Shown here: one piece after another, positions 1 to 64,000 of the stretch
Layout of the letters: each line of letters opens with the position of its first letter
Numbering within the stretch: the first letter of the stretch is position 1
The notes under the pieces: model-generated
The model's database searches: none
What the model saw: the letters and a program-made list of their open reading frames with translations, nothing else
Told to the model about the DNA's origin: nothing
Virus record (IMG/VR): IMGVR_UViG_2595698649_000001
Location: 83,285 to 147,284 of that record
Direction: 5' to 3' (one strand)
Source: a virus
Lineage: Duplodnaviria; Caudoviricetes
Length of the DNA stretch: 64,000 nt
Position numbers and translations under genes: made by a program

Positions 1-1
1 G

Positions 2-1267
2 TCACCACATAGACGAGAGGTAGTAGAAGACATTTTAGATATTAAGATATTTTCAGTAATGAATATGTTAGTTAAAATGCAAATCAAAGAAGTTACTGAA
101 CAGATAAGAGATATTGATAGAGATATACAAATAACAAAGAGTAAAGTAGAAACTCAACAACAATATTTACAAGATACAGGTAAACAGAATACAAAAGTTA
201 TAGATGATTATAATTCTAAGATAGAAGATAATAAACTGGCAATAGACAAGTATTCAACACATGTTGAGGGTATCAATAAACAGATAACAAATATTAAAAC
301 AACAATATTAGATGAAGAAAAGGTAAGACAACAAGTTAAGAAACTGAATAGTTTTGAAACACAGTTTGAAAGTAAAGTAAATCAATGTACAAAACATAAG
401 AAGTTTTATGAACTCAATGATAACTGTCCTACTTGTCAACAAAGTATTGACCCACAATTTAAATCAGAAAAGATTGCTGATGAAAACAAATCACTTATTA
501 AATTTAATCAGGCATTAGCAGATGTTGCTAAAGAGATTACAACTAAACAAAATAGATTACAAGCAATTGCTAGTGTACACGAAGAAATAAAAGTATTAGA
601 GATTGATAGTGTTAAGTATGAACAATCAAAAAATGAGTTAAACAATATTAACACAAAATTGGCACATAACATTGAACAGTTATCACAACAAAGTGAAGAC
701 ACAGGTAAAGCAAAAGGTAAGTTAGAAGAATTAGAAAATCAATTACAAGAATATGAAAAGGCAATAAGAACTAAAAAAGAAGAAACTGATTACCTACAAG
801 CTGCAAGAGTAATGTTAGCAGATACAGGTATTAAAACAAAAGTTATCAAACAATACTTACCTATTATGAACCAGTTAATTAACAAGTATCTGGCAAGTAT
901 GGATTTCTTTGTTAACTTTAAATTAGATGATGAGTTTAAAGAAATAATAAGAAGTAGATTTAGAGACGATTTTAGTTATACAAGTTTTAGTGAAGGTGAG
1001 AAGATGAGAATAAATCTTGCATTGTTATTTACATGGCGTGCTATTGCTAAAATGAAAAACAGTATATCAACAAATCTATTATTACTAGATGAAATATTTG
1101 ATAGTAGTTTAGACGGACAAGGTACAGATGATTTCTTAAAGATACTAAACACACTAGAGGGCGAGAATGTGTTTATTATATCTCACAAGACAGATATTAT
1201 GGCAGACAAATTTAAACAACAAATAAGGTTTGAGAAAGATAAGAACTTTACAAGGATAGTAGAATGA
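2..1267 (+). CDS. 46: gp46 recombination endonuclease ATPase subunit (SbcC/Rad50-like), 5'-truncated by window
   Basis: CPTC zinc hook, FSEGE signature, LLLLDEIFDSSLD Walker B, ISH; frame open from position 2 (RREVVEDILDI). Confidence 0.95.
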   Translation, partial: SPHRREVVEDILDIKIFSVMNMLVKMQIKEVTEQIRDIDRDIQITKSKVETQQQYLQDTGKQNTKVIDDYNSKIEDNKLAIDKYSTHVEGINKQITNIKTTILDEEKVRQQVKKLNSFETQFESKVNQCTKHKKFYELNDNCPTCQQSIDPQFKSEKIADENKSLIKFNQALADVAKEITTKQNRLQAIASVHEEIKVLEIDSVKYEQSKNELNNINTKLAHNIEQLSQQSEDTGKAKGKLEELENQLQEYEKAIRTKKEETDYLQAARVMLADTGIKTKVIKQYLPIMNQLINKYLASMDFFVNFKLDDEFKEIIRSRFRDDFSYTSFSEGEKMRINLALLFTWRAIAKMKNSISTNLLLLDEIFDSSLDGQGTDDFLKILNTLEGENVFIISHKTDIMADKFKQQIRFEKDKNFTRIVE

Positions 1268-2271
1268 AAATAACAATAGCTAGATTAAGAAGTGGAACAA
1301 ATTATAAAGAACCATTATTAGATATTATGGATTCTTTTTATGAGTTATATAAAAAATATCAAATACAAAGACCACAACACTCATATGGATATTACAACTT
1401 TGGTTTTGGTTTTGCAAACAGACAAAAGATGGATGATATTAAAGATAGTGATGTTATTATAATACCAAGTGAGAATGAGTTTACATTTCATATCAAAAAC
1501 TTTCAGGACAATAGACAAGTATTTCGTAGTAACGAAAAGGTACGAGAGATAGGTGCCATGTTGGCAGACAAACATATTATTATAATGAGAAGTGATAGAG
1601 CAGATAATGAAGAACTATACAGAAACAAAACATTTAAAGGATTTGATATAGGTAAGGTAAGTATATTAGATGAAATAGATATTGAAGGTGGCATACATGC
1701 TATGAAGTATCATTTTATTACAGACGCAATACCACCTAAATTAGAAGAAGGTACGAGAGCATATGATTTTGTATATTGGGGTACAGACAAAAGAAAGACA
1801 GCAGACAATGTTGAAAGTGGAGATATAAGACATACTTTCTTTAAACAAATATACAAAGAGAAAAAAATTAGTGCATACTGGATTGGTAAGTTTTCAGGTG
1901 TACAAAGAGATAAGAAAATAGATAAGATGAGAAATCTATTACCACATTTAACAAATGGTAAAACAACAATGTGTTTTAACTGGATGAGCAACACAGCAAC
2001 AACAAGTAGATACCACGAGGCATTAGCATGTGGCATAATACCATTTGTACATGAAAACTATGATGTAAACAATACAATAGTTGGAAACGAATGGCAAAGA
2101 GTGGTAGATGTAGAACATTTATATTCTAAGATTGACGAATTAAGAACAAACAATAGCTGGCAAGAAAAGTATAATGAGATACTAGATGACTATAAACGGA
2201 GAACATTAAAGTCAAAAGAGTGGTATTACAACGCTTTTCAATCAAGGCTTGACAATTTGATTAATTTATGA
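1264..2271 (+). CDS. T4 beta-glucosyltransferase-like GT-B protein (putative DNA glycosyltransferase)
   Basis: C-terminus TTSRYHEALACGIIPFVHENYD..LYSKIDELR..KSKEWYYNAF resembles the T4 BGT C-terminus as recalled; similar length; DFVYWG motif. Confidence 0.6.
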   Translation: MKITIARLRSGTNYKEPLLDIMDSFYELYKKYQIQRPQHSYGYYNFGFGFANRQKMDDIKDSDVIIIPSENEFTFHIKNFQDNRQVFRSNEKVREIGAMLADKHIIIMRSDRADNEELYRNKTFKGFDIGKVSILDEIDIEGGIHAMKYHFITDAIPPKLEEGTRAYDFVYWGTDKRKTADNVESGDIRHTFFKQIYKEKKISAYWIGKFSGVQRDKKIDKMRNLLPHLTNGKTTMCFNWMSNTATTSRYHEALACGIIPFVHENYDVNNTIVGNEWQRVVDVEHLYSKIDELRTNNSWQEKYNEILDDYKRRTLKSKEWYYNAFQSRLDNLINL

Positions 2272-2277
2272 TAAGCT
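2249..2277 (+). promoter_or_regulatory. sigma70-type promoter
   Basis: TTGACA-N17-TAAGCT with extended TG. Confidence 0.55.
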
Positions 2278-2290
2278 TAGTAAATATAAT

Positions 2291-2835
2291 ATGGAAAAAC
2301 TAATAACTAAAATTGAAGACATAAAAGTTAATTTATGTGAAGATGATATTTTAAATTTTTTACAAATACAGAAACGCTGGCCAATACAGTATTCTACTTC
2401 ACAACCTACAGTACAAATCATAAATGAACTAGGTAATTTCTACAACGATTTTTTTGAAAATACTGTAGATGGAATATTCTTAAATTATGATAAGTGGTTA
2501 TCTTTATACAACTTAGGATTTACTTCTATTATATCAAATGTTTTAGATTTATCAAAAGAACTAAGAACATTAGAGAAATTAATAATAGAAGAAATAGGTG
2601 TAAAAGTTTGTGGTAATTTTTACTTTAGTAAACCTGGAAGAAAAGAAAGTTTTGATAAACATACCCATAGTTATGATGTTATAGTAAAACAAATATATGG
2701 CAAGTCAAAATGGATTTTAAACAACCAAGAAATAGACCTATGTCCTAATCAAGTATTATATGTACCTAAAAATACTGAACACGCTGTTATTGAAAAAACA
2801 GAAAAAAATTATCATTAACCTTAAATTTAGCATGA
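2291..2835 (+). CDS. JmjC/cupin-4 (YcfD-like) oxygenase; apparent 1-nt deletion in A-run 2802-2808
   Basis: GNFYFS..FDKHTHSYDVIVKQIYGKSKW..LYVPKNTEHAV; adding one A gives KKLSLTLNLA* ending in an ATGA overlap with the next gene. Confidence 0.7.
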
Positions 2836-3974
2836 AGAATAAACCTATAGACCCTTTATTAGAAAAACAATGGGAGACCTTTCAACAAGAAAATCCTACA
2901 CCTTACGAACATATAGATACAAACGAACTTAAAGAGCGTTTAATTACTGAACTAGGTTATGTATCTGGTATGACAGTAGAAGAATATACATTATATCAAA
3001 AATGGTGTGAAGTTAAAAACAAGTATCCTGCTCAGACAGTAAACACTTTATTTGGCGAAGAAAGTCAATTAGTAGATTTATCAAAAGATAAACTATTATC
3101 TCATGTAAAGAACAATATATGGTCACCTCAGGATCCTATGGATTTTGAGAAGTTACAACCAGAACTAATCTATACAAAAGATAGTCCAGAATTACCACAA
3201 TTGTGGAACGCAATAAGAACATTTGCCTCTACAATGAAAAACAATAACAATATAGGTCGTAATCTAAACTTTATAGTAAGAGATAAACCAACAAAGAAAT
3301 ATCTAGGTGTCATTTGTATATCAAGTGACTTTTTAGATTTAACACCTAGAGATAATTACATAGGTTGGGATAGAGTTAGAAAAACACAAAAGATGATTAA
3401 TCATACGGCGATAGGTAGTACGATTGTGCCACTACAACCACTAGGTTATAATTACACAGGTGGTAAGTTACTTGCGTTGATGTGTTTATCAGATAAAGTA
3501 CAAGAGACATGGAAAAAAGAATATGGCGATACAATGGTTGGTGTTACAACTACAAGTTTATATGGTAGTTTTAGTCAATATCAGAATTTGAAACACTGGA
3601 AGAAAAGAGGTCATAGTGCAGGTAGTGTATCATACGAAGCAACGAAACCTACTATTCAGATGTTAAGAAAGTGGATTATGGAAAATCACACTAGAAAATA
3701 CTTTGAATGGTATAGTGCTACAAAACCTACAGGTCAACCATATAAGAGAGACCACAGAAATAGAAGTCATACATTTGCATATAGTAAACTAGGTATACCA
3801 AAAGAGTTAACAAAGTCAGACCACAGTAGAGGTATCTATTTTTCCGCTAGAAAGCGTATTAAATCATTGATTGACCAAACAAGGACAAACATGGAGACGC
3901 TTTACTATGATGACTTGATACATTTAACATGGGAAGAAACCAAAGAAAAGTATCTAAAACAGGTAGGAAGATAA
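2832..3974 (+). CDS. DruA/DUF4338-like protein, paralog 1
   Basis: GRNLNFIV, PLGYNYTGGKLLAL, TTTSLYG..SQY motifs shared with 16251..17375; likely ATG at 2832. Confidence 0.7.
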   Translation: MKNKPIDPLLEKQWETFQQENPTPYEHIDTNELKERLITELGYVSGMTVEEYTLYQKWCEVKNKYPAQTVNTLFGEESQLVDLSKDKLLSHVKNNIWSPQDPMDFEKLQPELIYTKDSPELPQLWNAIRTFASTMKNNNNIGRNLNFIVRDKPTKKYLGVICISSDFLDLTPRDNYIGWDRVRKTQKMINHTAIGSTIVPLQPLGYNYTGGKLLALMCLSDKVQETWKKEYGDTMVGVTTTSLYGSFSQYQNLKHWKKRGHSAGSVSYEATKPTIQMLRKWIMENHTRKYFEWYSATKPTGQPYKRDHRNRSHTFAYSKLGIPKELTKSDHSRGIYFSARKRIKSLIDQTRTNMETLYYDDLIHLTWEETKEKYLKQVGR

Positions 3975-4098
3975 GAACAAAAGTAGAACATAGGCTGTGC
4001 GATATGACGCACCAGCAATAAATCGTTGATTTATAAAGGTTCTTTTTTTGTATTTTATGCCAATAATTGTTGACTTTTGGTTAAAATTGGTATAGGAT
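3975..4098 (+). promoter_or_regulatory. compound promoter: GAAC-N7-GAAC box, TGCG..CGCA box, IHF-like site, sigma70 promoter
   Basis: GAACAAAAGTAGAAC 3975-3989; TGTGCGATATGACGCA 3996-4011; TAAATCGTTGATT 4019-4031; TTGACT 4070 N17 TAGGAT 4093. Confidence 0.75.
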
Positions 4099-4128
4099 AT
4101 ACAGTATATTATGAAAACGAGGTCAAAT

Positions 4129-6465
4129 ATGAATACTATTTCAAAAGAGCAAAAATCAAATCTTGCTAAATTACTTGCAACAGAAAATCTAAACGTAGAA
4201 CATAGAAAAGTTAAAACAGCACACTTTGTTCCAAAGACTAGAACTTTATGTCTTCCAATATGGGACAATATGTCTAATGACCTTTATGACTTATTATGTG
4301 GACACGAAGTTGGTCACGCATTATGGACTCCTGCTGATGAGACAAAATTAAACGAAGCAAAAAAGAAACACAATATTCCTCACTCTTACATGAATGTTAT
4401 TGAAGATATCAGAATTGATAAGAAGATGAAATTAAAATACCCTGGTCTTAGAAAATCATACTTTAACGGTTACAAAGAATTAGTTGCTAGAGACTTTTTT
4501 GGTAAGATTGGTGACGAAGCAAACAATATGAGATTTATTGATAGACTTAATGTGTTTACAAAATCTGGTCACTTAGAAAATACTATTGAGTTTAATGACC
4601 AAGAAAAATCATTTATTGAAAAATCAAATCACTTAGAAACTTTTGATGATGTAATTGACCTTGCTAAACAAATCTTTGCTTATAGTAAAGAAGAAAATTA
4701 CGATAAAGAAAAAGACCCTTTATTTCAACAGTTAAAAGAAATAGAACAAGATAAACTTGACCAAGATGAACAAGATAATCAATCAGAGCAATCTGAAAGT
4801 GAAGATAGTCAGGATCCTTCAGATGAAAAGCAATCACAATCTGGTGGTGATGAAGATACAGAAAAAGAAGAAGAAAAAGATAATACAACTTCAGGTGATG
4901 ACGGTAACAAAACTGATGAACCTGAAAACGAGAATAAACAAAAAGTAGATGGTAACAAAGGTCACATGGGTAGTCATAATCCAGAGTATCAACCTGAAAA
5001 AATTACTCCTTCAAATAGTGACGGTTCATTATCAGATGAAATGTTTAAAGAAGCAATGAAGTCTTTATCAAATATGTCTGAGAATATTAGAGACCGTAGG
5101 TATGTTACATTACCAAGTCTTAGTGAGGAAGATGTTATTATATCTTCAAAACATGTTGCTAAGTTATACAAAGATTATTATACAAAAAAATATTCATCAA
5201 CTCCTACAATGATGGCAAATAGTCTTAATAGATTTAAAGAGTGGAAGAAATCACAATCTGGTACAATCTCTTATATGGCAAAAGAGTTTGAAATGAAAAA
5301 AGCGGCAGATACTTACAAAAAGTCTTTAACAAGTAAAACTGGTATTATCAATATGAATAAAATTCACTCATATAAATTCAATGATGATATATTCAAAAAA
5401 ATTCAAATAGAACCAGGTGCCAAAAATCATGGTATGATTATGTTTATAGATTGGTCTGGATCCATGTCTCAAAATATTGATGACACAATCAAGCAAACTT
5501 TAAACTTAGTAATGTTTTGTAAAGCAGTTCAAATACCTTTTAGAGTATTTGCTTTTTCAGATATTACTAGAGCTGCGTTCTATAAAGAAGACCATGATGA
5601 TTATGGTTATTCAAGTAGAGCAGCAAGAGATTTAAAAAACAATCCTTTTAAACATAAACACGGTGACTTGTTTATTGAAAATGTAAACTTAATTGAGTGG
5701 TTATCAAGTGACCAAAAAACTCCTGAGTATAATGAGAATATGTTAAACTTATATAGATTTGGTGAGTATCATACTCAATATTATAATCATAGAAGACATT
5801 ATGACAGTTATGAAGAACCAATTGATATGCCTAGTTGTATGAGACTTGGCGGTACTCCTCTGGATCCTGCTATCGTTGCTTCTTTAACTATTGTTAAAAA
5901 CTTTATTCTTAAACATAAGATACAAAAAATGAATACAATCTTTTTAACTGATGGTTGTGGTCATTCAATGTATAATACTGTTACTACTACTGACAAAGGT
6001 AATTTAGAATTAGATTATGGTAGTGAAAATGCAGATTTAGTTATCAAAAATCCAGTTACTAAAAAAAACTATCCTTATGAAAGTCATAGATTTACAAAAT
6101 CAACTGCCGTTATGTTTGATATGTTAAGACAATCTACTGGTACTAATATTGTAGGTTTCTATGTTACAAGTAGAAATAATGCTAGTTACTATGATATATC
6201 AAATTTCTTACCAGAAGGTGCCGGTTATGACGGTGTTGACGCTGTAAGAAAACAAATGCGTAAAGATAAAGTTGGTACTATTGTTGGTACTGGTTATGAT
6301 GAATTGTTTATCATTCCAAAAAAGAATTTAAAGATAGTTGACGAAGAAGCGAAGATTAATCCAGATATGTCAATTGCTAAAATGAAAGCAGAATTTGGTA
6401 AGACTTTAAAAACTAAAAAGATATCCAGAGTTTTACTGAATAAATTTGTGGAAAGAGTTGCCTAA
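4129..6465 (+). CDS. CobT-like protein with HExxH peptidase and VWA domains
   Basis: HEVGH motif, acidic linker, FIDWSGSM MIDAS, LTDG; adjacent to CobS-like ATPase. Confidence 0.85.
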   Translation: MNTISKEQKSNLAKLLATENLNVEHRKVKTAHFVPKTRTLCLPIWDNMSNDLYDLLCGHEVGHALWTPADETKLNEAKKKHNIPHSYMNVIEDIRIDKKMKLKYPGLRKSYFNGYKELVARDFFGKIGDEANNMRFIDRLNVFTKSGHLENTIEFNDQEKSFIEKSNHLETFDDVIDLAKQIFAYSKEENYDKEKDPLFQQLKEIEQDKLDQDEQDNQSEQSESEDSQDPSDEKQSQSGGDEDTEKEEEKDNTTSGDDGNKTDEPENENKQKVDGNKGHMGSHNPEYQPEKITPSNSDGSLSDEMFKEAMKSLSNMSENIRDRRYVTLPSLSEEDVIISSKHVAKLYKDYYTKKYSSTPTMMANSLNRFKEWKKSQSGTISYMAKEFEMKKAADTYKKSLTSKTGIINMNKIHSYKFNDDIFKKIQIEPGAKNHGMIMFIDWSGSMSQNIDDTIKQTLNLVMFCKAVQIPFRVFAFSDITRAAFYKEDHDDYGYSSRAARDLKNNPFKHKHGDLFIENVNLIEWLSSDQKTPEYNENMLNLYRFGEYHTQYYNHRRHYDSYEEPIDMPSCMRLGGTPLDPAIVASLTIVKNFILKHKIQKMNTIFLTDGCGHSMYNTVTTTDKGNLELDYGSENADLVIKNPVTKKNYPYESHRFTKSTAVMFDMLRQSTGTNIVGFYVTSRNNASYYDISNFLPEGAGYDGVDAVRKQMRKDKVGTIVGTGYDELFIIPKKNLKIVDEEAKINPDMSIAKMKAEFGKTLKTKKISRVLLNKFVERVA

Positions 6466-6483
6466 ATGAAAAAAATGACTAAG

Positions 6484-6582
6484 TGCGACATGTTGACACA
6501 GCAATTAATTTGGAAAGCGTTGAAATATAAAGGTTTTTTATTTGAAATAACGCTTGACTTTAACAATAAAGTGTGATAGGAT
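6484..6582 (+). promoter_or_regulatory. compound promoter: TGCGACA box, degenerate IHF-like site, sigma70 promoter
   Basis: TGCGACATGTTGACACA 6484-6500; GTTGAAATATAAAGG; TTGACT 6554 N17 TAGGAT 6577. Confidence 0.7.
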
Positions 6583-6620
6583 ATAGTTATATTATGAAAA
6601 AAAGTGAAAGGACTACAATT

Positions 6621-7793
6621 ATGTTAAACGAGAAACAAAAAAAGTTTGTTGACCTTGCTGTAAAAGAACTTGGTACTGATACAGTAACAAGAAAGCAAGT
6701 ACAAGAACTTGAAACAAAATTTAACCTTACTGGTAACAGTTGGTTAGTAAATTCAGGAGATTACAAAGTGGGCAGAGGCGTATATAAATTACCTACTGAC
6801 GGTGTTGTAAACCCTAGTAAGAATATCAAACAGAAATTGCCTAAGACTAAAGCAGTTGCTGAGACAGTTACTTTAAAAGAGACTGCTCAAAATACTGAGA
6901 GTTTAGTTCCTAATAAAGAGGCAACTTTCGTATCATTTGGTAATTACAAAGATATTAAGAATATTGTAAAATCTAAAATATTCTATCCTACATTTATTAC
7001 AGGTCTTTCTGGTAACGGTAAGACTTTAGGTGTTACTCAAGCGTGTGCTGAGTTAAAAAGAGAATTAATTAGAGTTAACATAACAGTTGAAACGGACGAA
7101 GATGATTTACTTGGTGGTTTCAGACTAGTTGACGGTGCTACAGTATGGCATGACGGTCCTGTTGTTGACGCTATGAAGCGTGGTGCTCTTCTATTGTTAG
7201 ATGAGATTGACCTTGCTTCAAACAAAATTATGTGTTTGCAACCTATCTTAGAAGGTAACGGAGTGTTCCTTAAAAAGATTGGTAAATTTGTTGAACCTGC
7301 TGAAGGTTTCAACATTGTTGCTACTGCCAATACTAAAGGTAAAGGTAGTGAAGACGGAAGATTTATTGGTACTAACATACTCAATGAAGCTTTCTTAGAA
7401 AGATTTCCTGTTACTTTTGAACAAGAGTATCCTCCTGTAAAAGTAGAACAGAAAATTTTAGATAATGTTATGTCCGCTTATGCTTTAAAGGATCCTAAGT
7501 TTACTGAGAACCTTGTTAAATGGGCAGATGTTATTAGAAAAACTTTTTATGATGGCGGTGTTGATGAGATTATTGCTACTAGAAGACTAGTGCATATCAT
7601 TAATGCTTTTGCTATCTTTAAGAATAAACTTAAAGCTGTTCAAGTTTGTGTAAACAGATTTGATGACGATACTAAAAACAGTTTCTTAGATTTATATTCT
7701 AAAGTTGACGCTGGTGTTAACATGGAAGATATATCTGGAAATGGGAATGATGTTGACCCAATAAACATGGAAGAGGAAACTCCAAGTGTTTAA
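6621..7793 (+). CDS. cobS: CobS-like MoxR-family AAA+ ATPase
   Basis: GLSGNGKT Walker A, LLLDEIDL Walker B, NEAFLERF. Confidence 0.9.
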   Translation: MLNEKQKKFVDLAVKELGTDTVTRKQVQELETKFNLTGNSWLVNSGDYKVGRGVYKLPTDGVVNPSKNIKQKLPKTKAVAETVTLKETAQNTESLVPNKEATFVSFGNYKDIKNIVKSKIFYPTFITGLSGNGKTLGVTQACAELKRELIRVNITVETDEDDLLGGFRLVDGATVWHDGPVVDAMKRGALLLLDEIDLASNKIMCLQPILEGNGVFLKKIGKFVEPAEGFNIVATANTKGKGSEDGRFIGTNILNEAFLERFPVTFEQEYPPVKVEQKILDNVMSAYALKDPKFTENLVKWADVIRKTFYDGGVDEIIATRRLVHIINAFAIFKNKLKAVQVCVNRFDDDTKNSFLDLYSKVDAGVNMEDISGNGNDVDPINMEEETPSV

Positions 7794-13764: not shown

Positions 13765-13776
13765 ATATTATTGTTT

Positions 13777-16254
13777 ATGCGAGATTTTTATACTAACGTT
13801 TCACCTTACGGCGATGAATTACTTGTCCGTGGTTTTCAAAACGGCGAAAGATTTGAAGATAGATTACATTATGTACCTTCAATCTACCACCCTTACAAAT
13901 CACCACAACCTACAAAGTATCGTGCTTTAGATGGCACGCCACTAGTTGCTCGTAAATGTAAAACTGTTAAAGAAGCAAGAATGCTTATCAAACGGTATGA
14001 AGAGCATCCTAATTTTATATACGGGACAGATAGATGGCAATATCAATACATTGCTGACTATTACCAAGGTACAGTAGAATACGACAAAAACAAATTACGA
14101 ATTTATACAATAGATATTGAAGTAGAAAGCGAACATGGATTTCCTAATCCAGATGACGCTGACGAAAAAATGATTTGTATTACAATCAAAGACCAAATTA
14201 AAAAATCTATATTAGTTTGGGGTCTTGCTGATTATACAGTTAAACAAAAGAATGTTAATTATATTAAATGTAAAGATGAAAAAGATTTACTTAAAAACTT
14301 CTTAGGTTTCTGGAAACAATACACGCCAGATATTCTAACAGGTTGGAATAGTAAATACTTTGATGTACCTTATCTTATTAATAGAACTAAAAAAGTATTA
14401 GGCGAACACTCAATTAAAAGATATTCGCCATGGGATATTGTTGACGAAGACAAAGCATATCACAACGGTAGACAAGTTACATTTTTTAGATTGTTAGGTA
14501 TTGCACAACTTGACTATCTACAACTCTATGCTAAATTTACAATTAAGAACCAAGAACGATATACACTTGACCATATTGCATTTGTAGAACTTGGCGAACA
14601 AAAAGATAAAAACCCATATGACACTTTTAAAGAATGGTATCAAAATGATATACAATCTTTTATTGATTACAACATTGTTGATGTAGAACTAGTTGATAAA
14701 CTAGAAGATAGATTACAACTAATTGAGCTTGCAATCACTATGTCTTATAATGCAAAAGCAAACTTTGAAGATGTATTCTCACAAGTTAGAATGTGGGACA
14801 CAATCATATTCAACGAATTATTAAAAGATGATATTATTGTACCAATGAGAAAGATTGGTAGTATTCAAGCAAAAGAACTTGTAGGTGCATATGTTAAGGA
14901 TCCTAAAGTAGGTTTCCATGATTGGGTTGTATCGTTTGACTTGAACTCACTATATCCACATTTAATTATGCAATACAATATTAGTCCTGAAACTATACTA
15001 CCAGAACAAAAAGATATATTGATTGATGACTTACTTGAAAAGAAAGTTGACACGTCTGACGGTAACTGTATTGCTGCCAATGGCACAATGTATAAACGAG
15101 ACGTACAAGGTATGTTGCCACGAATTATACAAAAAGAATATAACGATAGAGTTATTTACAAAAAGAAAATGTTAGAAGCAGAACAAATGTATGCTAACAC
15201 AAAAGATAAGAAGTATGAAAAACTGGCAAGAAAGTTTTATATCATACAACACTCTAAAAAAATATCCTTGAATAGTGCTTATGGTGCAATTGGTAACAAA
15301 TACTTTAGATATTATGACCATAGACAAGCAGAAGCGATTACTATGTCTGGTCAATTAAACATTAAATGGATTGAAAAAAGATTAAACGAATACTTTAACA
15401 AGTTGTATAATACAGATGATGATTATATCATTGCGTCTGATACAGATAGTGTGTACATTAATATGGCACCACTTGTAAAGATGACTGGTGCAACTGATAA
15501 AGATAAAATTGTAAAAGCATTAGACACATTTTGTAGTGAAAGACTAGAACCATATATTGCAAAAGTATATAAAGAACTTGGCGATTATATGAACGTTAGT
15601 GAAAACAAAATGGTTATGAAACGAGAGGCGATTGCTGATAGAGGTATCTGGACTGCCAAGAAAAGATATGTTCTAAATGTTCATAATTCTGAGGGTGTTC
15701 AATATTCTGAACCTAAACTTAAAATTATGGGCATTGAAGCAGTAAAAACTTCAACGCCATTACCTGTTAGAGAAAAGTTAAGAGAGAGTTTTAAAATATT
15801 AATGTCTGGTAATGAAACACAAATGAAAGACTTTGTAATAAACTTTAAACGAGAGTTTGAACACATGACGCCAGAACAGATTGGTTTCCCTCGTAGTATT
15901 AATAACATAGAAAAATATTCTGACACAACATCTATATACAAGAAAGGTACACCAATGCATGTCAAAGGTGCATTGTTATATAATCACTTGTTAAAAACTA
16001 ATAAAGTGGCACATAAGTACCAACGAATATATAATGGTGACAAAGGTAAGTTTGTACATCTAAGAAAGAATATCTGGAATGCAAATGTAATTACTTTCAT
16101 TGCAGATTTGCCAAAAGAATTTGATATGCACAAAAGTATAGATTATGATTTACAGTTTAATAAATCATTTATGGAACCATTACGATTTATACTTGAAGCA
16201 ATTAAGTGGCGAGTTGACGCAAGCGAAACAAGTAACCTAGAGGATTTCTTTTGA
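13777..16254 (+). CDS. 43: gp43 family B DNA polymerase
   Basis: DIEV exonuclease, SFDLNSLYP, KISLNSAYG, SDTDS, KKRY. Confidence 0.98.
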   Translation: MRDFYTNVSPYGDELLVRGFQNGERFEDRLHYVPSIYHPYKSPQPTKYRALDGTPLVARKCKTVKEARMLIKRYEEHPNFIYGTDRWQYQYIADYYQGTVEYDKNKLRIYTIDIEVESEHGFPNPDDADEKMICITIKDQIKKSILVWGLADYTVKQKNVNYIKCKDEKDLLKNFLGFWKQYTPDILTGWNSKYFDVPYLINRTKKVLGEHSIKRYSPWDIVDEDKAYHNGRQVTFFRLLGIAQLDYLQLYAKFTIKNQERYTLDHIAFVELGEQKDKNPYDTFKEWYQNDIQSFIDYNIVDVELVDKLEDRLQLIELAITMSYNAKANFEDVFSQVRMWDTIIFNELLKDDIIVPMRKIGSIQAKELVGAYVKDPKVGFHDWVVSFDLNSLYPHLIMQYNISPETILPEQKDILIDDLLEKKVDTSDGNCIAANGTMYKRDVQGMLPRIIQKEYNDRVIYKKKMLEAEQMYANTKDKKYEKLARKFYIIQHSKKISLNSAYGAIGNKYFRYYDHRQAEAITMSGQLNIKWIEKRLNEYFNKLYNTDDDYIIASDTDSVYINMAPLVKMTGATDKDKIVKALDTFCSERLEPYIAKVYKELGDYMNVSENKMVMKREAIADRGIWTAKKRYVLNVHNSEGVQYSEPKLKIMGIEAVKTSTPLPVREKLRESFKILMSGNETQMKDFVINFKREFEHMTPEQIGFPRSINNIEKYSDTTSIYKKGTPMHVKGALLYNHLLKTNKVAHKYQRIYNGDKGKFVHLRKNIWNANVITFIADLPKEFDMHKSIDYDLQFNKSFMEPLRFILEAIKWRVDASETSNLEDFF

Positions 16255-17375
16255 TATTAAATAACCAAGACGCTACATGGGCAATGAATTACTTTATAGA
16301 ATACTTTGGTCAATATGAAAGAATAGACCAATATCTTAAAGAACAAAAATTAGAACAAGTTAAAAATTTTCCATTTCAATTACCTGGCATGGCAGACGAA
16401 GATGAGTTTTTTGCTAACTTTGAAATATCTCCTGAAGATATGAAATTTAGCGTGACTATACCTAATGGTCAAATATTTGATAGAATGTTAAACAAAACAT
16501 CTAGTCATACTAACATGTCAAGTATACCTGGTAAGTCAATTAGATTGTTAGTTACAGAAACAACTACAAATACTATTGTAGGTTTTATTAGACTTGGTAG
16601 TCCTGTGATTAATAGTAAACCACGAAATGTTTATCTTGGTAGACCTTTACAAACTACAGACATGGAAGAAATGGGTAGATTTAACAATAGTGCCATTATG
16701 GGATTTGTAATTGTACCTACACAACCATTTGGTTATAATTATCTTGGTGGTAAACTATTAGCGGCGATATGCTGTAGTCATCATGTGAGAGATATACTAA
16801 ATAAGAAATATAATACTAACATATGTTTATTTGAAACAACAAGTTTATATGGTAGTAGTAAATCATCAAGTCAGTATGATGGTATGAAACCTTATTTAAG
16901 ATTTAAAGGTTTGACAGATAGTCACTTCTTGCCATTATTACATGGCGAAGCATTTAAGAAAATGAATGCCTGGTTTACAGAAAGAAACGGAGAACCTTTA
17001 GTTGACGCTGACGCAAGTAGTAGAAAACTAAAAATACAAACAAAGATGGTATCTATAATCAAGGAATCCTTGAAACAATATGACGCCAATCTATATGATA
17101 AGTTTAGTAAGTTTGTAAATAAAACTAGAGACTTAACTGAACAGAAAAGATTTTACATGTCTGATTACGGATATGAAAATGTGCCACAATATCTTAAACG
17201 TGAGACAGATGAATTAAAACGTGGTATACACTACGATAAGTTTACATTAGAGAATACAATCAAATGGTGGCAAAAACTTGCTACTAAACGATTTAATAAA
17301 CTTAAACAAAACAATAATATAAGAAATGATTTAGAGATATGGCACGAAGACGCCAATATACAAATTATAAGATAA
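16251..17375 (+). CDS. DruA/DUF4338-like protein, paralog 2
   Basis: PGKSIRLLV, QPFGYNYLGGKLLA, FETTSLYG..SQYDG. Confidence 0.7.
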   Translation: MILNNQDATWAMNYFIEYFGQYERIDQYLKEQKLEQVKNFPFQLPGMADEDEFFANFEISPEDMKFSVTIPNGQIFDRMLNKTSSHTNMSSIPGKSIRLLVTETTTNTIVGFIRLGSPVINSKPRNVYLGRPLQTTDMEEMGRFNNSAIMGFVIVPTQPFGYNYLGGKLLAAICCSHHVRDILNKKYNTNICLFETTSLYGSSKSSSQYDGMKPYLRFKGLTDSHFLPLLHGEAFKKMNAWFTERNGEPLVDADASSRKLKIQTKMVSIIKESLKQYDANLYDKFSKFVNKTRDLTEQKRFYMSDYGYENVPQYLKRETDELKRGIHYDKFTLENTIKWWQKLATKRFNKLKQNNNIRNDLEIWHEDANIQIIR

Positions 17376-44897: not shown

Positions 44898-45609
44898 ACC
44901 AGGTCAATTCTTTGACGAAAATTATTACGAAAGAGGTGCAGAAACAGGTAAGAGTTTGTATTCACATTATAGATGGATGCCAGAACTCACAATACCTATG
45001 TGCCATCACATTGCCAAATACCTAGAATTAAAAGAAACAGATAAAGTATTAGACTTTGGTTGTGCCAAAGGATTTTCAGTATATGGTCTTAGACTATTAG
45101 GTTATAAGGCATATGGTGTAGATGTATCAGAATATGCAGTTAAGAAATCACCAGAAGAAATAAGAAAGTGGTTAGGTGTAATAGAACCACAAGAAGAATT
45201 AACATGTGCTGAAGGTGGTTATGACTGGATACTTTGTAAAGATATATTAGAACATGTACCCTATGAAAATATAGAACAACAACTGGAAGTATTTCACAAA
45301 GGTGGTAAAAGATTATTTGTGATTGTACCTATAGGTCGTAATGGTAAATATTTAATTGATAGTTATGAACAAGACAAGTCACACTTTATTAAAGAAGATA
45401 TAGATTGGTGGACTAAAAAGATAGAAGACGCAGGTTTTGAGATAGACTTAGCAACTTATGATTTAGGTCCTTTTAAAAAGAACTGGCAATTTGAACCAGA
45501 AGGTAATGCCTTAATTATGGCAACAAGACCAAATACTTTACACGAAGATTTAATGATAGGTTTTAAAGAAGAACAAAGACAAAGAGAATTAGAAGAAGAA
45601 GACGAGTGA
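44881..45609 (+). CDS. class I SAM-dependent methyltransferase
   Basis: VLDFGCAKG, GVDVS, DILEHV. Confidence 0.9.
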   Translation: MKTLFKPGQFFDENYYERGAETGKSLYSHYRWMPELTIPMCHHIAKYLELKETDKVLDFGCAKGFSVYGLRLLGYKAYGVDVSEYAVKKSPEEIRKWLGVIEPQEELTCAEGGYDWILCKDILEHVPYENIEQQLEVFHKGGKRLFVIVPIGRNGKYLIDSYEQDKSHFIKEDIDWWTKKIEDAGFEIDLATYDLGPFKKNWQFEPEGNALIMATRPNTLHEDLMIGFKEEQRQRELEEEDE

Positions 45610-47138: not shown

Positions 47139-47886
47139 AATTGACCACATAGTAAAATGGATAAAAGATTATGCAAACAAATATAACAAGACAACATTAG
47201 TTATAGGTGTATCAGGTGGTATAGATAGTGCAGTAGCGTCAACGCTATGTGCTATGACAGGTATCAAAGTCATACCAATTGTAATGTCAATTAAAAATAA
47301 AGATACATTAGCATTAGAACATGCTTGGTGGTTAGATGAGAATTTTGATAATGTAAGTCGTAGAGTTATTAACTTAGAAAAAATATTCCATGAGTTTGAA
47401 AACGCAAGTAATTATCTAGGTGCTGATAGTAAATTAGCATTTGCAAATAGTCGTAGTAGATTAAGAATGATGATGTTATATCAAGTGGCACAAAGTAGTA
47501 ATGGATTAGTTGTAGGCACAGGTAACAAAGTAGAAGATTTTGGTGTAGGTTTCTATACTAAGTATGGTGATGGTGGTGTTGATATATCACCTATTGCAGA
47601 TTGTATGAAAACAGATGTATGGAAAATTGCAAAAGAATTAAATATATTACAATCAATACAAGAGGCAAAACCAACAGATGGTTTATGGGACGATGGAAGA
47701 ACAGATGAAGACCAACTTGGTATGAGTTACGAAGAATTAGAAAAAGCAATGAAGCAAGACCAAATGGGTGCCATTGTTACTAAACCTAGTGACCAAGAAA
47801 GAATGAGTATATATATGAAACATAGAAAACAAAATTTACATAAGATGGAACCTATTCCAGTATGTAGCATGGAGAAATTTAAATGA
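47128..47886 (+). CDS. nadE: NH3-dependent NAD+ synthetase
   Basis: GVSGGIDSA, SRLRM, GTGNKVE, TKYGDG, PTDGLW, DEDQLG. Confidence 0.93.
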   Translation: MKDRIDHIVKWIKDYANKYNKTTLVIGVSGGIDSAVASTLCAMTGIKVIPIVMSIKNKDTLALEHAWWLDENFDNVSRRVINLEKIFHEFENASNYLGADSKLAFANSRSRLRMMMLYQVAQSSNGLVVGTGNKVEDFGVGFYTKYGDGGVDISPIADCMKTDVWKIAKELNILQSIQEAKPTDGLWDDGRTDEDQLGMSYEELEKAMKQDQMGAIVTKPSDQERMSIYMKHRKQNLHKMEPIPVCSMEKFK

Positions 47887-49028
47887 AAGTAGGATTTATA
47901 GGACTAGGTAAACTAGGCAGAGACGCAGCTGAAGTATTAGCAGAAAAACATGATGTAACAGGTTATGACCCTCATGTAGATGTACCAGGTTTATCAGGTA
48001 CACAAGAACAAGCATGTAAAGGTAAAGATGTAGTTTTAATTGCAGTACAAACACCACATGACCCTTTGTATGACGGTAAAGACCCAACATCACATTTACC
48101 ACCAAAAGATTTTGATTACTCTTACATTATAGAGGCAACGAAACAAGTTGACGCATTAGTAGATAAAGGTACTTTAATTTCTGTTATATCAACTATGTTA
48201 CCAGGTACTGTAAGAAAACAAATACAACCACTTGTACAAAATGGTCAGTTTATTTACAATCCTTATTTGATTGCACAAGGTACTGTAAAATGGGATATGA
48301 AAAATCCTGAAATGATTATGATAGGTACGGAAGATGGCAAAGAAAGTTTAGCAGTAGATATGTTGCATGACTTATATGACCCTATCTTAGAGAAAGAAGT
48401 AAGATATGAATTAGGTACATGGGAAGAAATAGAAGCATTAAAAGTATTCTACAATACCTTTATATCTACAAAACTTGCATTAGTGAATATGATACAAGAC
48501 ACAGCAATGAATGTTGGTCATATGAATGTTGATGTGGTAACAAATGCATTGAAAAATAGTACACAAAGAATTATGGGACCTAGTTATATGAAAGCAGGTT
48601 TTGGTGACGGTGGTGGTTGCCATCCTAGAGATAATATCGCATTAAGAGTATTGAATGAAAGATACCAATATGGTTATGACTTGTTTGATAGTATTATGAA
48701 AGCAAGAGAAGAACAAGCTGCCAACATGGCAAGATATTGTTTATCTTTTCAAATGCCTGTAGTTATACTAGGTAAGGCATTTAAACCTGGCATTGACCAA
48801 ACGGCAGGAAGTCCTTCTATGTTAGTTGGTTGGTATGTAGAAAAGTTAGGTAGTCAAAAAGTACATTATGATAAAGCACCTGATGGTGGTGCGTACACTT
48901 ATCTTATACATGATAAAGGTTTGATACCTGAAGAATGGAATCCTGGTAGTTGTATTATAGACCCTTATAGAGAATTAGGTCCAGTTAAAAATTGTGTGGT
49001 AAAACATTATGGTAACACTCGCAGATAG
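47883..49028 (+). CDS. UDP-glucose/GDP-mannose dehydrogenase family
   Basis: GLGKLG, AVQTP, K..N, GDGGGCHPRD, GKAFKP. Confidence 0.92.
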   Translation: MKVGFIGLGKLGRDAAEVLAEKHDVTGYDPHVDVPGLSGTQEQACKGKDVVLIAVQTPHDPLYDGKDPTSHLPPKDFDYSYIIEATKQVDALVDKGTLISVISTMLPGTVRKQIQPLVQNGQFIYNPYLIAQGTVKWDMKNPEMIMIGTEDGKESLAVDMLHDLYDPILEKEVRYELGTWEEIEALKVFYNTFISTKLALVNMIQDTAMNVGHMNVDVVTNALKNSTQRIMGPSYMKAGFGDGGGCHPRDNIALRVLNERYQYGYDLFDSIMKAREEQAANMARYCLSFQMPVVILGKAFKPGIDQTAGSPSMLVGWYVEKLGSQKVHYDKAPDGGAYTYLIHDKGLIPEEWNPGSCIIDPYRELGPVKNCVVKHYGNTRR

Positions 49029-49497
49029 AAAGATTGGAACAAATGTATTAGTTAACCTTGTTAACATAAGGTCAACTCTTCCACAAAAACTTGTAGGTCT
49101 ACAAAGACATTTACAACAAGATTATAATTCTTATATAGAATATCTAAATGCAAGATGTCAAGCATTTGTAGATAGAGGTTGGAAAATTAATATGATGAAT
49201 GATGTTATTGACGAAACTGTTAATGATAGAAAACTTGTACATCCTTTATTTGACTTTAAAGATTTTAAAAGAAGACAGTTTATACCAGAAGATGAGATAA
49301 GAAGTTATGAAAAGATATTTGTTGCAGGTGTATTTTTACAACATGAGGTATTAGAAAAGTATCATATGTTAAACAAAGTAAATCCTGAAACTTATATTAC
49401 ACCTACAATATCATTTTGCCAAGAATGGGGATATGATACACAAAAGAATGAAAACTGGAAAAAACTTGTAACTTTAGATATGTTTGCTTATGTTTAA
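49009..49497 (+). CDS. hypothetical protein
   Basis: Overlapping ORF in the cluster; no clear motif. Confidence 0.55.
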   Translation: MVTLADRKIGTNVLVNLVNIRSTLPQKLVGLQRHLQQDYNSYIEYLNARCQAFVDRGWKINMMNDVIDETVNDRKLVHPLFDFKDFKRRQFIPEDEIRSYEKIFVAGVFLQHEVLEKYHMLNKVNPETYITPTISFCQEWGYDTQKNENWKKLVTLDMFAYV

Positions 49498-50122
49498 TAT
49501 ACCTCATTGGAAATATAATGTGGATCCTAAAAGTTATGATAGAGATATCATATTAAAAGAAATAGAACATAATTATAATATTGATAATCACAGAAACGAA
49601 TGGGATGGTAACAATCCTTTACAAAGTGATTTACACCATAGTAATAAGGATCCAGATAATCCTAAATTTAAAAAGATTAATTATAAATCTATCATACCAG
49701 TTTACCATAAACTCTTTGATAATTTTTGTAAAACATTAAAACTTAAAAGTTCATTTACATATACATTTCAGATTACAAACTATACTGCCATGAAGTCAGG
49801 TCAATATATGAGACCACATAATCATGTAGGTGATAGTGATTTCACTTGTATTCATTATATCAAGTACAATAAAGACAAACACCAATCTACATTATTCCAC
49901 AATGCCAATCATTGGGCAGATGATTACCAATACTTACGACCTATATTCTATTCTAAATTAGACCCATTAAACGAAGAACATAGTTATCTTAACAAATACT
50001 GGAAACTTCCTACTGAGGAAAATGATTTTATTATTACACCTTCCGCTTTAGTACACGAAGTACCACCTTTCAAATCAGACGAATTAAGGGTTACCTTAGT
50101 CGTAAATCTTCAAATTAAGTAG
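49490..50122 (+). CDS. 2OG-Fe(II) oxygenase-like
   Basis: PHNH..FTCIHY..PSALVHEV..RVTLVVN. Confidence 0.8.
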   Translation: MFNIPHWKYNVDPKSYDRDIILKEIEHNYNIDNHRNEWDGNNPLQSDLHHSNKDPDNPKFKKINYKSIIPVYHKLFDNFCKTLKLKSSFTYTFQITNYTAMKSGQYMRPHNHVGDSDFTCIHYIKYNKDKHQSTLFHNANHWADDYQYLRPIFYSKLDPLNEEHSYLNKYWKLPTEENDFIITPSALVHEVPPFKSDELRVTLVVNLQIK

Positions 50123-62527: not shown

Positions 62528-62720
62528 TAATTCAGTAGATAAGTCTTTTGAGAATGAAACACCGGCACCAAGTCCTATGGTTCAGATTTCTATAAAAGAA
62601 TACGACAAGTTAAAAGAACATCAAAAGTATATATCAGACAAAGGTATAATTGACATTATAGATAATGTTGAAAGACTTGTTAGAGCATTGAGAAAACATA
62701 TTGTTAGGACAGACATATAA
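62517..62720 (+). CDS. hypothetical protein
   Basis: SD AAGGAG; MVQISIKEYDKLK. Confidence 0.6.
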   Translation: MTDDNSVDKSFENETPAPSPMVQISIKEYDKLKEHQKYISDKGIIDIIDNVERLVRALRKHIVRTDI

Positions 62721-62929
62721 TGACACCTAAACAATTTGCATTAGTAATAGAAAAACGAGCAAGTAAGAAAAGAATAAGTCACATGGAAGCTGTATTAGAT
62801 TATTGTACTGAGAAACAGATTGAACCAGATGAAGTGACACATTTAATTAACAGAAACTTAAAAGAAAAAATAAAGGCAAATGCTGAAAATTTGAATTTCT
62901 TACCAAAGACAGCAACATTGCCAGTATAA
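62720..62929 (+). CDS. 33: gp33 late transcription coactivator
   Basis: F..IEK..MEAVLDYC..IE..LKEKIKANAENLNFL. Confidence 0.9.
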   Translation: MTPKQFALVIEKRASKKRISHMEAVLDYCTEKQIEPDEVTHLINRNLKEKIKANAENLNFLPKTATLPV

Positions 62930-62938
62930 GGATAAATT

Positions 62939-63475
62939 ATGGAACAATGGAAAATAAAACCTCACACATTTAAATTTAGAGAAGGCGACAGCGATGAAAA
63001 AGGTGGTTGTACGTTTATTGGTGGTACATGGAAAGATGTTACTACAGATGAACTATTTGCAGGCAAAAGGGTAGTATTGTTTAGTCTACCTGGTGCATTT
63101 ACACCAACTTGTTCAAGTGAACAGTTACCGGCATATGAGGAAATGTATGATAGATTTAAACATGCAAGAATAGATGAAGTTTATTGTGTATCAGTAAATG
63201 ACGCTTTTGTAATGAATGCTTGGGCAAGAGACCTAGGTATTAAGAAAGTAAAAATGATACCAGACGGTTGTGGTACATTTACAAGTAATATGGGTATGTT
63301 AGTAAGTAAACCGGCACAAGGTTTTGGTATGAGAAGTTGGAGATATTCTGCTCTTGTAGAAGATGGTCTTGTAACTAGATTTAACCAAGAACCAGGATAT
63401 AATCATCAATCAGTAGACGCTGACCCATACGTTAGGTCAGACCCACAAACTATATTAGCGACTATTAGTGTATAA
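62939..63475 (+). CDS. Prx5-type peroxiredoxin
   Basis: LPGAFTPTCS, SVNDAFVMNAW, RSWRY. Confidence 0.95.
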   Translation: MEQWKIKPHTFKFREGDSDEKGGCTFIGGTWKDVTTDELFAGKRVVLFSLPGAFTPTCSSEQLPAYEEMYDRFKHARIDEVYCVSVNDAFVMNAWARDLGIKKVKMIPDGCGTFTSNMGMLVSKPAQGFGMRSWRYSALVEDGLVTRFNQEPGYNHQSVDADPYVRSDPQTILATISV

Positions 63476-64000
63476 TATTTTTTCAACACCTATCTTTATT
63501 GATGATATTGATTTAAGTAAAGTTAATTTATTATCTGAAAGTTTTAAGGCACAATGGGAATCCAATACAACATCATCACATGGAGAAACCAATACACTTA
63601 AACAAGAAGAAGTAAAGTATTTACTAGACACTATAGTAAAAAATTTAAATGAGTTTATACAAGACCCATTTGAAATATCATTAACACAGATGTGGAGAAA
63701 TAAATATAAACCAGGTGACTTTCAGGAGAAACATGCACATGTAAAACATAGTTTTTCTTTTATTATCTATGAACAGGTAACTGAAAGTAAAACTGTATTT
63801 GTACACCCAATACAACAACTGTTATTAGAAAAATATGGATATGATAAAGATGATAAAATGGAATGTATATTCAATCATCAACATGAACCTAAATGTAAAG
63901 CAGGTCAAATCATTATCTTTCCTAGTTACTTAGAACATTTTGTAAGAAGTAATGACGAAGAAACAATTACAGTTGCAGGTAACATAAAGTTAAATATAAA
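63468..64000 (+). CDS. 2OG-Fe(II) oxygenase, 3'-truncated by window (not in ORF track)
   Basis: GTG start; IFSTP, WRNKY..QEKHAH..FSFIIY..IFPSYLEHFV..ITVAGN. Confidence 0.8.
   Translation, partial: MYNIFSTPIFIDDIDLSKVNLLSESFKAQWESNTTSSHGETNTLKQEEVKYLLDTIVKNLNEFIQDPFEISLTQMWRNKYKPGDFQEKHAHVKHSFSFIIYEQVTESKTVFVHPIQQLLLEKYGYDKDDKMECIFNHQHEPKCKAGQIIIFPSYLEHFVRSNDEETITVAGNIKLNI

Follow-up and report, generated by a model that had tools for sequence, protein, structure and literature searches.

In the 64,000 nucleotides of phage DNA analysed here (positions 83,285 to 147,284 of IMG/VR virus record IMGVR_UViG_2595698649_000001, hereafter the window), the short sites GATC and GANTC occur only where the outer G or C of the site is doubled into a GG/CC step, and the same exemption recurs at unrelated sites that this genome and its relatives avoid. 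The pattern suggests a protective chemical mark at the GG/CC steps of the phage DNA. The reading that we prefer, and to which we give a probability of roughly one half, is that restriction-type nucleases select against the sites, while a post-replicative modification of GG/CC would mask the half-sites that contain such a step; two proteins of the DruA/DUF4338 family encoded in the window are put forward, more tentatively, as the enzymes that may write it.

The window belongs to a single viral contig of 147,284 bp, rated 100% complete by CheckV, which represents a T4-like marine myophage without a close cultured relative. Its G+C content is 32–33%, nearly all genes lie on the plus strand, and the coding strand is rich in A and G. 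The window contains a T4-type replication module (gp45, gp44, RegA, the gp43 polymerase, UvsX, the gp41 helicase, a primase, RNase H and a class I ribonucleotide reductase). The closest cultured phages, cyanomyophages and the Methylophilales phage Melnitz, reach a polymerase identity of no more than about 50%, and uncultured relatives with 72–100% polymerase identity are common in IMG/VR. Expected counts were taken from codon-preserving shuffles in which all proteins and the usage of codons stay unchanged (200 for the window, 100 for the whole genome, which is designated G000), and paired figures are written observed/expected. The comparison set comprised five whole related contigs (G001–G005) and 71 polymerase-centred related loci, together with the cultured Pelagibacter phage Mosig (MT647606), phage Melnitz, podophages of Mosig's laboratory host, and cyanophages.

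All 39 GATC sites in the window have a 5′ G or a 3′ C (GGATCC 21, TGATCC 6, AGATCC 5, GGATCA 4, CGATCC 3), all 17 GANTC sites are GGANTC or GANTCC, and both TGATCA and AGATCT are absent, with 16.3 and 17.1 expected. An earlier note on this DNA had reported these regularities by eye, and each is borne out by counting; the positions it listed are those at which the flanked motif starts, as with GGATTC at 1329–1334, GAGTCC at 11111–11116, and the GGATCC and GGATCA sites of Table 1. The codon-aware comparison that it proposed places the unflanked sites nowhere near expectation: in the window HGATCD stands at 0 against 89.9±7.6 and HGANTCD at 0 against 81.6±7.1. Sites flanked on one side reach about 0.4 of expectation (GGATCD 18 against 45.9±4.9, GGANTCD 10 against 24.3), and those flanked on both sides are enriched (GGATCC 21 against 6.5±2.1, GGANTCC 7 against 4.3). 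Across the whole genome 83 GATC and 43 GANTC sites follow the flank rule with zero exceptions, the unflanked forms being 0 against 208±11 for HGATCD and 0 against 215±11 for HGANTCD.

Much of this avoidance can be followed in the choice of synonymous codons. Asp-Gln is written GAC CAA at 4597 and 4759, as had been pointed out, and throughout the window GAT is never used for Asp-Gln and GAC is used 32 times. The counts are likewise GAT 0 and GAC 75 where Asp precedes His, Gln, Leu (CTN) or Arg (CGN); they are GAT 30 and GAC 23 before Pro, and GAT 807 and GAC 359, or 69% GAT, before any other codon. Most of the tolerated GATC sites are in-frame Asp-Pro junctions (GAT CCW), and the genome is AT-rich with a strong strand asymmetry, features that would be expected if the pattern were a by-product of codon usage, codon-pair constraint, mutation bias or an assembly artefact. 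We consider this hardly credible, as the genome-wide zeros given above are set against shuffles that preserve codon usage. GAC CCN is freely used, in 63 of 122 Asp-Pro junctions, so nothing forces GATCC. Tolerated sites also occur in other frames, as at the Gly-Ser junctions of the genome (GGA-TCA 11 and GGA-TCC 3, with no AGA-TCN or CGA-TCN except one CGA-TCC), and GATC is depleted in all three frames and on both strands, from which it follows that the rule acts on DNA and not on codons. The pattern is moreover common to independent contigs from many samples, and Melnitz and the podophages differ under the same method.

Where one-sided sites are disfavoured, the genome has actively converted GATCC into GGATCC. 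In G000 a codon ending in G comes before 22 of the 59 in-frame GAT-CCN, compared with 72 of the 1973 GAT codons found elsewhere (p 8e-16), and in Mosig a G precedes 18 of 18 such junctions compared with 102 of 1958 other GAT codons. The corresponding figures in G004, 7 of 36 and 120 of 1198, do not differ significantly.

The exemption is wider than the GGA/TCC context in which it was first noticed, and consists in the doubling of the outer G or C of a site into a GG/CC step. For TCNNGA the doubled base is G in the GA half or C in the TC half: all 141 TCNNGA in the genome are TCCNGA or TCNGGA, with TCDHGA at 0 against 103.4 in the window and TCWWGA at 0 against 185 genome-wide. GCATC is reduced to 23 against 207 in the genome, and 14 of the 23 are GCATCC; thus GCATCC stands at 14/20 and GCATCD at 9/185 in the genome, and at 6/7.9 and 2/62.2 in the window. 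All 14 GTATAC in the genome are GGTATAC or GTATACC, the window holding 9 GTATAC in all with HGTATACD at 0/8.4. TCGA is absent from the window (0/82.6) and nearly so from the genome (2/209), and a k-mer survey of the genome adds AGTACT (0/49), GAATTC (0/31), CGCG (1/33), CASTG (10/125), ACGT (108/325) and RGCY (262/849) to the depleted words. When the flanks of all depleted 4- to 6-mers were scanned without prior selection, pooled over four genomes, the clearest and recurrent contexts were G before GATC, GANTC and GATGC and C before CGCG and CAGTG, with G before CCGAG and T before CCCTGA as minor contexts. Doubling of A or T never rescues a site, and where ACGT, TCGA and AGTACT are avoided no copy of them survives.

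Several observations on flanks and asymmetry accompany this rule. The asymmetric tetramer TCGG/CCGA stands at 16/177, a depletion of about tenfold that extends to both strands and every frame in G000, G001, G004 and G005; Mosig, Melnitz, G002 and G003 show no such depletion. Of the 16 survivors 13 read TCGGC/GCCGA, and no restriction enzyme is known to recognise the tetramer. The GANTC exemption is strand-asymmetric where N is G or C, with GGACTC/GAGTCC at 51/54 and GGAGTC/GACTCC at 7/51 in G000, G001, G004 and G005. A refinement of the exempt context to GGAH, which the second of these figures invites, was rejected, as TCWGGAG (47/83) lies at the background ratio for GGAG. General avoidance of GGAG does not account for the loss of GGAGTC, so the effect is specific to GAGTC and suggests an additional asymmetric agent directed at it. 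A refinement to CCW or CCD, based on the lower pooled tolerance of CCC (GATCCC 12/39, CCCGCG 0/14, CCCASTG 2/26), was also abandoned, failing in G004 (GATCCC 11/15) and in Mosig, where a further C follows 5 of 19 GGATCC.

The subset of motifs that is avoided differs between relatives, which points to separate and independent selective agents. TCGA, almost eliminated from G000, stands at 253/315 in G004; G001 has lost ACGT (0/281) and CASTG (0/133); the loci L038 and L041 avoid GANTC and TCNNGA and avoid GATC much less (HGATCD 21/41 and 18/31); and G002 avoids GATC only. The repertoire also turns over between near relatives, the loss of TCGA being very recent: the locus L007, with 94% polymerase identity, retains 11 TCGA in 21.6 kb where 31 are expected, compared with 0 in the 64 kb of the window where 83 are expected. 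Across these different motif sets the exemption is identical wherever a motif is avoided.

What does vary is the tolerance of sites that are flanked on one side only. One-sided GATC stands at 0/95 in Mosig, 14/56 in G005, 37/127 in G001, 55/116 in G000 and 112/100 in G004, so that tolerance ranges from 0 in Mosig through 0.25–0.48 in G005, G001 and G000 to 1.1 in G004. The two-sided GGATCC comes close to expectation or exceeds it in each of the five, from 8/13 to 28/12, and is lowest in G004. In G004 one-sided sites are exactly neutral (GGATCD 112/100, GGANTCD 71/75, TCCHGA 68/94), and the exemption on the C side is clean there, with DCGCGH at 0/54 compared with CCGCGH at 26/32, and DCASTGH at 4/74 compared with CCASTGH at 58/57. 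At the other extreme, all 19 GATC of Mosig are GGATCC (HGATCD 0/198; GGATCC 19 against 8), and Mosig spares GCATCC (20/17) and GGTATAC too. In the same phage GGCC is not avoided (120/107) but GGGCC/GGCCC is (0/19), and not one copy of ACGT (0/246), CGCG (0/22) or AGTACT (0/34) is left.

In Melnitz the avoidance of GATC extends to all contexts (HGATCD 10/237, one-sided 10/147, GGATCC 3/13), and the exemption therefore cannot be put down to the method or to the avoidance of GATC in itself. In two podophages of Mosig's laboratory host none of these motifs is avoided in the first 50 kb of each genome, and TGATCA and AGATCA are not avoided in S-PRM1, S-CAM9, S-B68, S-SSM7, P-HM2, P-SSM4 or the marine viruses AG-345-L05, -F15 and -O18, nine genomes that are therefore uninformative here. 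Outside the clade GGTACC is missing from S-PRM1 (0/39) and Melnitz (0/20), though GTAC itself is common; CCCGG stands at 1/45 in S-PRM1, and GCGC is spared in Melnitz when it is flanked by G (HGCGCD 12/42, GGCGCD 46/39). These last effects look like avoidance of the targets of six-base cutters, and they caution against over-reading weak flank effects.

We propose that this lineage has lost, for the most part through synonymous substitutions, the targets of many restriction-type nucleases (GATC, GANTC, TCNNGA, TCGA, GCATC, CASTG, AGTACT, GAATTC, CGCG, ACGT and others); the loss is visible in the counts, and nucleases are its probable cause. Replicated DNA would then gain a context-specific mark at GG/CC, and a half-site whose outer G or C lies in such a step would be masked. 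Two masked half-sites, as in GGATCC, would always protect, and the effect of a single one would vary with the nuclease, from full protection through partial protection to none; enzymes whose reading of the site differs, such as those of EcoRI-like (GAATTC) or ApaLI-like (GTGCAC) specificity, would not be blocked. The most consistent target would be the C of 5′-WCC-3′ or its partner G, as this base satisfies all five universal exemptions, whereas the A of GGA fits four and not GGTATAC. A single feature that masks half-sites explains the shared exemption, the order of tolerance, the differences between lineages and the failure against some enzymes, and the order from two-sided through one-sided to unflanked sites is consistent with fully and half-modified sites.

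The earlier note had supposed that sites are counter-selected unless a base within GGA/TCC carries a phage modification. Counter-selection of whatever is not masked stands as the most economical explanation, supported indirectly by the same exemption at at least five unrelated motifs and its recurrence across lineages, by the graded tolerance, by the conversion of GATCC into GGATCC and by the candidate genes described below, but GGA/TCC has become a special case of a wider rule. The note's allusion to CcrM and the alphaproteobacterial role of GANTC is not needed, since GANTC behaves as one of more than ten independently avoided sites.

The earlier note had named as its alternative a phage nuclease that spares these contexts. 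The same footprint could indeed arise with no modification if the nucleases that drive avoidance, whether of host restriction or encoded by the phage against its host, simply rejected half-sites with a doubled outer base. Their true targets would then be HGATCD, HGANTCD, TCDHGA and the like, and cutting would need two good half-sites in phages of the G004 type and one in those of the Mosig type. This would account for an exemption that is alike in phages whose candidate genes are unrelated (DruA-like or methyltransferase-like), for its absence from Melnitz, which infects another host clade, and for the failure to match any canonical DNA methyltransferase or TGT gene in G000. The podophages that share Mosig's laboratory host and avoid nothing in their first 50 kb also speak for it; they mean that the host strain by itself is not the agent, which could be specific to myophages. 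Nonetheless we regard it as unlikely. At least five to seven agents (for GATC, GANTC, TCNNGA, GCATC, GTATAC, CGCG and CASTG), which differ in specificity and spacing and vary independently between lineages, would all need the same odd flank rule, and the base to be rejected would have to change with the site, G for those starting with G and C for those starting with C. More than ten site-specific nucleases in one phage are implausible, and no set of this kind appeared among the roughly 60 open reading frames of the window and its relatives scanned in Pfam; no restriction enzyme is known to have a specificity of the HGATCD type.

Phosphorothioation of the Dnd/Ssp type (GpsG, CpsC) was considered as the form of the mark since the junction at which a site becomes exempt is the phosphate on its 5′ side. 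A phosphorothioate at the scissile bond would fit ^GATC and TC^NNGA but not the positions at which the other sites are usually cut, and this form was set aside. Dnd/Ssp-type phosphorothioation is reported to modify only part of its sites, and partial modification would not give a rule with zero exceptions.

As to the writers of the modification that we favour, a third and weaker step of the proposal is that two DruA/DUF4338 proteins of GNAT fold, A and B (Table 1), may place the mark, acting like Mom of phage Mu; we advance this as a tentative assignment. Protein A matches Pfam PF14236 with E 1.8e-10 (40.9 bits, cut-off 27), phrog_19197 with E 3e-197 and the PADLOC DruA model with E 3.5e-8, and protein B matches PF14236 with E 6.2e-18 (65.4 bits, cut-off 27) and PADLOC DruA with E 4.9e-14, both covering only about half of the DruA profile. 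Protein B is 55.8% identical to Mosig_00022 of Mosig over 92% of the query (tblastn). The AlphaFold2 (AF2) model of protein A, with a predicted local distance difference test score (pLDDT) of 76, has a GNAT-like core with a helical insertion at residues 232–293. Foldseek matched this model best to GNAT acyltransferases, which made up all of the top matches (probability ~1, E ~2e-3), and VIA-align gave Z scores of 8–9.5 over residues 60–335. Mu Mom (8bv8_B) aligns with Z 9.2 and a root-mean-square deviation of 4.1 over 159 residues, a score that ties with unrelated generic GNATs, and no match came from searching PDB sequences with a profile built on the DruA-like alignment. The DruA-like protein has 6,997 homologs at E ≤ 0.001, and the family is very abundant in ocean viruses; in cyanomyophages the gene lies between the clamp-loader genes gp44 and gp62. 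One homolog carries the depositors' label "mom", and a cyanophage homolog with 51% identity is termed structurally similar to Mom in the available text of PMC12801897. Local phmmer and profile searches found no DruA-like gene in Melnitz.

Other routes to a modified base were sought in G000. The canonical DNA methyltransferase families PF01555 (N6_N4), PF02086 (D12/Dam), PF00145 (C5), PF05869 (phage Dam) and PF02384 (N6_Mtase, for type I/IIG enzymes) gave zero matches under a screening filter that may miss divergent members, and a local profile of the methyltransferase-like family with the motif FTSPPYF, described below, found no member. For the 7-deazaguanine route, TGT/DpdA (PF01702) gave 0 matches, and the PP-loop protein of Table 1 matches NAD synthase, its match to QueC being below threshold.

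The position of these genes is the strongest indirect argument for the DruA-like proteins as candidate writers. Protein A is flanked by gp43 and uvsX, and protein B by a JmjC protein and a 784-aa protein. A DruA-like gene A lies between gp43 and uvsX in 29 of the polymerase-centred loci, and in six others this slot is taken by an N6_N4 methyltransferase-like gene (a weak PF01555 match with the motifs DxSxGWG and FTSPPYF); in a seventh locus, L062/G003, such a gene stands just after gp41. No polymerase-centred locus carries both. The sister genomes G002 and G003 differ in this way too: where G002 has its two DruA slots, G003 has two paralogous methyltransferase-like genes, whose distant phage homologs are annotated as N4-cytosine methylases, although phmmer searches of the PDB with the two proteins gave only chance-level matches. 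In Melnitz a C5 methylase adjoins the polymerase. The replacement by position implies that the slots hold DNA-modification genes. G003, which has no DruA-like gene and seemed at first to contradict the assignment, has methyltransferase-like genes in both its slots.

A GG/CC modification could also be real and be written by something else, either a common host enzyme or another phage gene such as the pair formed by the 784-aa protein and an AAA_5 ATPase. The pair is present in G000, G001, G002, G003 and Mosig, all of which show the exemption, was not found in Melnitz, and in G000, Mosig and G003 adjoins slot B directly on its downstream side; a shared writer of this kind would explain why the exemption is the same whether the slots hold DruA-like or methyltransferase-like genes. 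We nevertheless think it quite improbable, since the AAA_5 member of the pair resembles chaperone ATPases of the MoxR/CbbQ type (with a CbbQ_C match in G003) and the pair is also carried by cyanophage S-PRM1, which avoids none of these sites. As for a host enzyme, no host is known for this genome, and near-complete modification of fast-replicating phage DNA would be required of it. The order slot B, protein of about 780 aa, AAA_5 MoxR/CbbQ-type ATPase spans 2291–7793 of the window, 10226–15683 of Mosig and 150609–156125 of G003, and in the window a JmjC/cupin protein precedes slot B.

Among features that could mask half-sites in this way, context-specific DNA modification after replication is the kind already known, and Mom of phage Mu is its textbook case. 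Mom has a GNAT fold and an essential HTH-like insertion, and uses Gly-tRNA to turn dA of double-stranded DNA into N6-carbamoylmethyl-dA. Chlorovirus M.CviPII (CCD) and the 7-deazaguanine insertion of phage CAjan provide viral marks of 2–3 bp that protect many overlapping sites. As described in the available text of PMC13219725 and PMC7261163, Mom is phage-encoded, acts after replication on a short motif and gives broad protection from restriction though it modifies only a fraction of sites; the same text of PMC13219725 places the modified dA in the motif SAS on double-stranded DNA after replication. The candidate proteins resemble Mom in their modelled GNAT fold, but they are not related to it at the level of sequence, Pfam giving only DruA/PF14236. 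The context here appears to be GG/CC (GGA/TCC, GGT/ACC, CCG, CCA) and not SAS, the modified base may be C or G rather than A, and there are two paralogs, set in a T4-type replication module and known from a genomic footprint in place of chemistry. The likeness to M.CviPII is that GATCCC, at 12/39 when pooled, falls below GATCCA (152/219) and GATCCT (135/184); the difference from both M.CviPII and CAjan is that no C5 or N6/N4 methyltransferase and no TGT/DpdA homolog was found in G000.

Both window proteins pass the PF14236 gathering score and match the PADLOC models for DruA, a component of Druantia type I. Unlike those of Druantia, they are encoded in a phage replication module without Druantia partners, and the MZB/DUF1998 domain of the DruE helicase was not found in the genome. 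The Druantia papers found on DUF4338/DruA do not, in their available portions, address the function of DruA. With palindrome avoidance in other phages the genome shares a strong, lineage-specific synonymous depletion of short targets (GATC, GANTC, TCGA, GAATTC, AGTACT), but classical avoidance takes no account of context, as with GATC in Melnitz, whereas here a defined flank is exempt across unrelated sites. A search of the papers covered, for restriction site avoidance in combination with pelagiphages, found none that contains the phrase. Site avoidance, protection of the Mom type and short-motif viral methylation are already known; the shared exemption without exceptions within a genome, the grading between one and two flanks and the link to DUF4338 were not found in the literature searched.

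A number of points weigh against the reading that we prefer. Melnitz is the only clear control without the exemption, and its host differs too; the cyanophages that carry a DruA-like gene do not avoid these sites and so say nothing either way. The exemption is the same in G003 (non-palindromic HGATCD 81/188 compared with one-sided 164/182; CCGCGG 5/4 compared with DCGCGH 0/63), and L033, which has a methyltransferase-like gene, shows HGANTCD at 5/22 and GGANTCD at 4/5. The DruA-like and methyltransferase-like families share no detectable domain (hhalign probability 0.2%), so that either two enzymes have the same context specificity or neither causes the exemption. Sites that contain or abut GG/CC are not always rescued: GGAATTC is 0/28 and GGTGCAC 2/31 when pooled, so GAATTC and GTGCAC gain nothing from the flank, and CCGA/TCGG (16/177), GGCC (22/83) and GGAGTC (7/51) likewise remain depleted. 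Each of these needs an added assumption about the sensitivity of the enzyme concerned. No single modified base explains the exemptions on both the G side and the C side unless both base pairs of the step are affected. The source of selection is also unclear for phages of SAR11, where according to the available text of PMC7029224 only 1 of more than 100 genomes encodes restriction-modification.

The coordinates of the sites, genes and neighbouring features are collected in Table 1. From 41092 to 50122 of the window there is a cluster of tightly overlapping genes, open reading frames of no known function among them, which may encode a pathway for the modification of small molecules, sugars or nucleotides. 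It was considered as a DNA-hypermodification pathway and set aside, as nothing ties the cluster to DNA. Elsewhere, the open reading frame at 23278–23940 has Zeta_toxin/AAA_33 P-loop kinase domains (E 3e-13), and its homolog in L033 has an extra HNH_3 motif.

Table 1. Features of the window, in window coordinates.
Feature	Coordinates	Strand	Remarks
Genome-wide compositional footprint	1..64000		HGATCD, HGANTCD, TCDHGA and TCGA absent; GATC, GANTC, TCNNGA, GCATC and GTATAC tolerated only beside GG/CC
Two-sided tolerated site GGATCC	3131..3136		Example; CAG GAT CCT, Gln-Asp-Pro
One-sided tolerated site GGATCA	28592..28597		Example outside Asp-Pro junctions; GGA TCA, Gly-Ser
Avoidance by synonymous choice	4597..4602	+	Example; Asp-Gln as GAC CAA
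DruA/DUF4338-family protein B	2760..3974	+	404 aa; paralog of A; Pfam PF14236; PADLOC DruA
784-aa protein of no known family and AAA_5 (MoxR/CobS-like) ATPase	4111..7793	+	Adjoins slot B on its downstream side
gp43-type family B DNA polymerase	13771..16254	+	Pfam DNA_pol_B and DNA_pol_B_exo1; anchor of the replication module; used to collect relatives
DruA/DUF4338-family protein A	16251..17375	+	374 aa; TTG start; between the gp43 polymerase gene (directly upstream) and uvsX
Radical S-adenosylmethionine (SAM) protein	43527..44897		Cluster 41092–50122
SAM methyltransferase	44881..45609		Cluster 41092–50122
Carbamoyltransferase	45606..47138		Cluster 41092–50122
NAD-synthase-like PP-loop protein	47113..47886		Cluster 41092–50122
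UDP-glucose-dehydrogenase-like protein	47883..49028		Cluster 41092–50122
2-Oxoglutarate (2OG)-Fe(II) oxygenase	49484..50122		Cluster 41092–50122

Should the preferred reading be correct, sequence alone would predict that a DNA modification not yet described is specific for GG/CC steps, and the phage would be seen to drop only those sites that its mark cannot cover while converting half-covered sites into fully covered ones. Mosig is cultured, on HTCC1062, and shows the rule in its purest form, which makes the prediction directly testable. The preferred reading would also offer a first functional lead for DruA/DUF4338, a component of Druantia defence, and would suggest strong pressure of the restriction type on pelagimyophages despite hosts that are described, in the available text of PMC7029224, as almost without restriction-modification. 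We hold it possible, though on balance doubtful, that DruA/DUF4338 proteins form a new GNAT class of enzymes that modify DNA bases in a particular sequence context, that two paralogs in marine T4-like phages mark GG/CC and so mask every restriction half-site overlapping it, that sister phages use N4/N6-methyltransferase-like genes in the same two slots to this end, and that DruA of Druantia type I is itself a DNA-marking component. The spectrum of avoided and exempt sites would in that case record both the specificity of the modification and the set of restriction activities present in an uncultured population of hosts.

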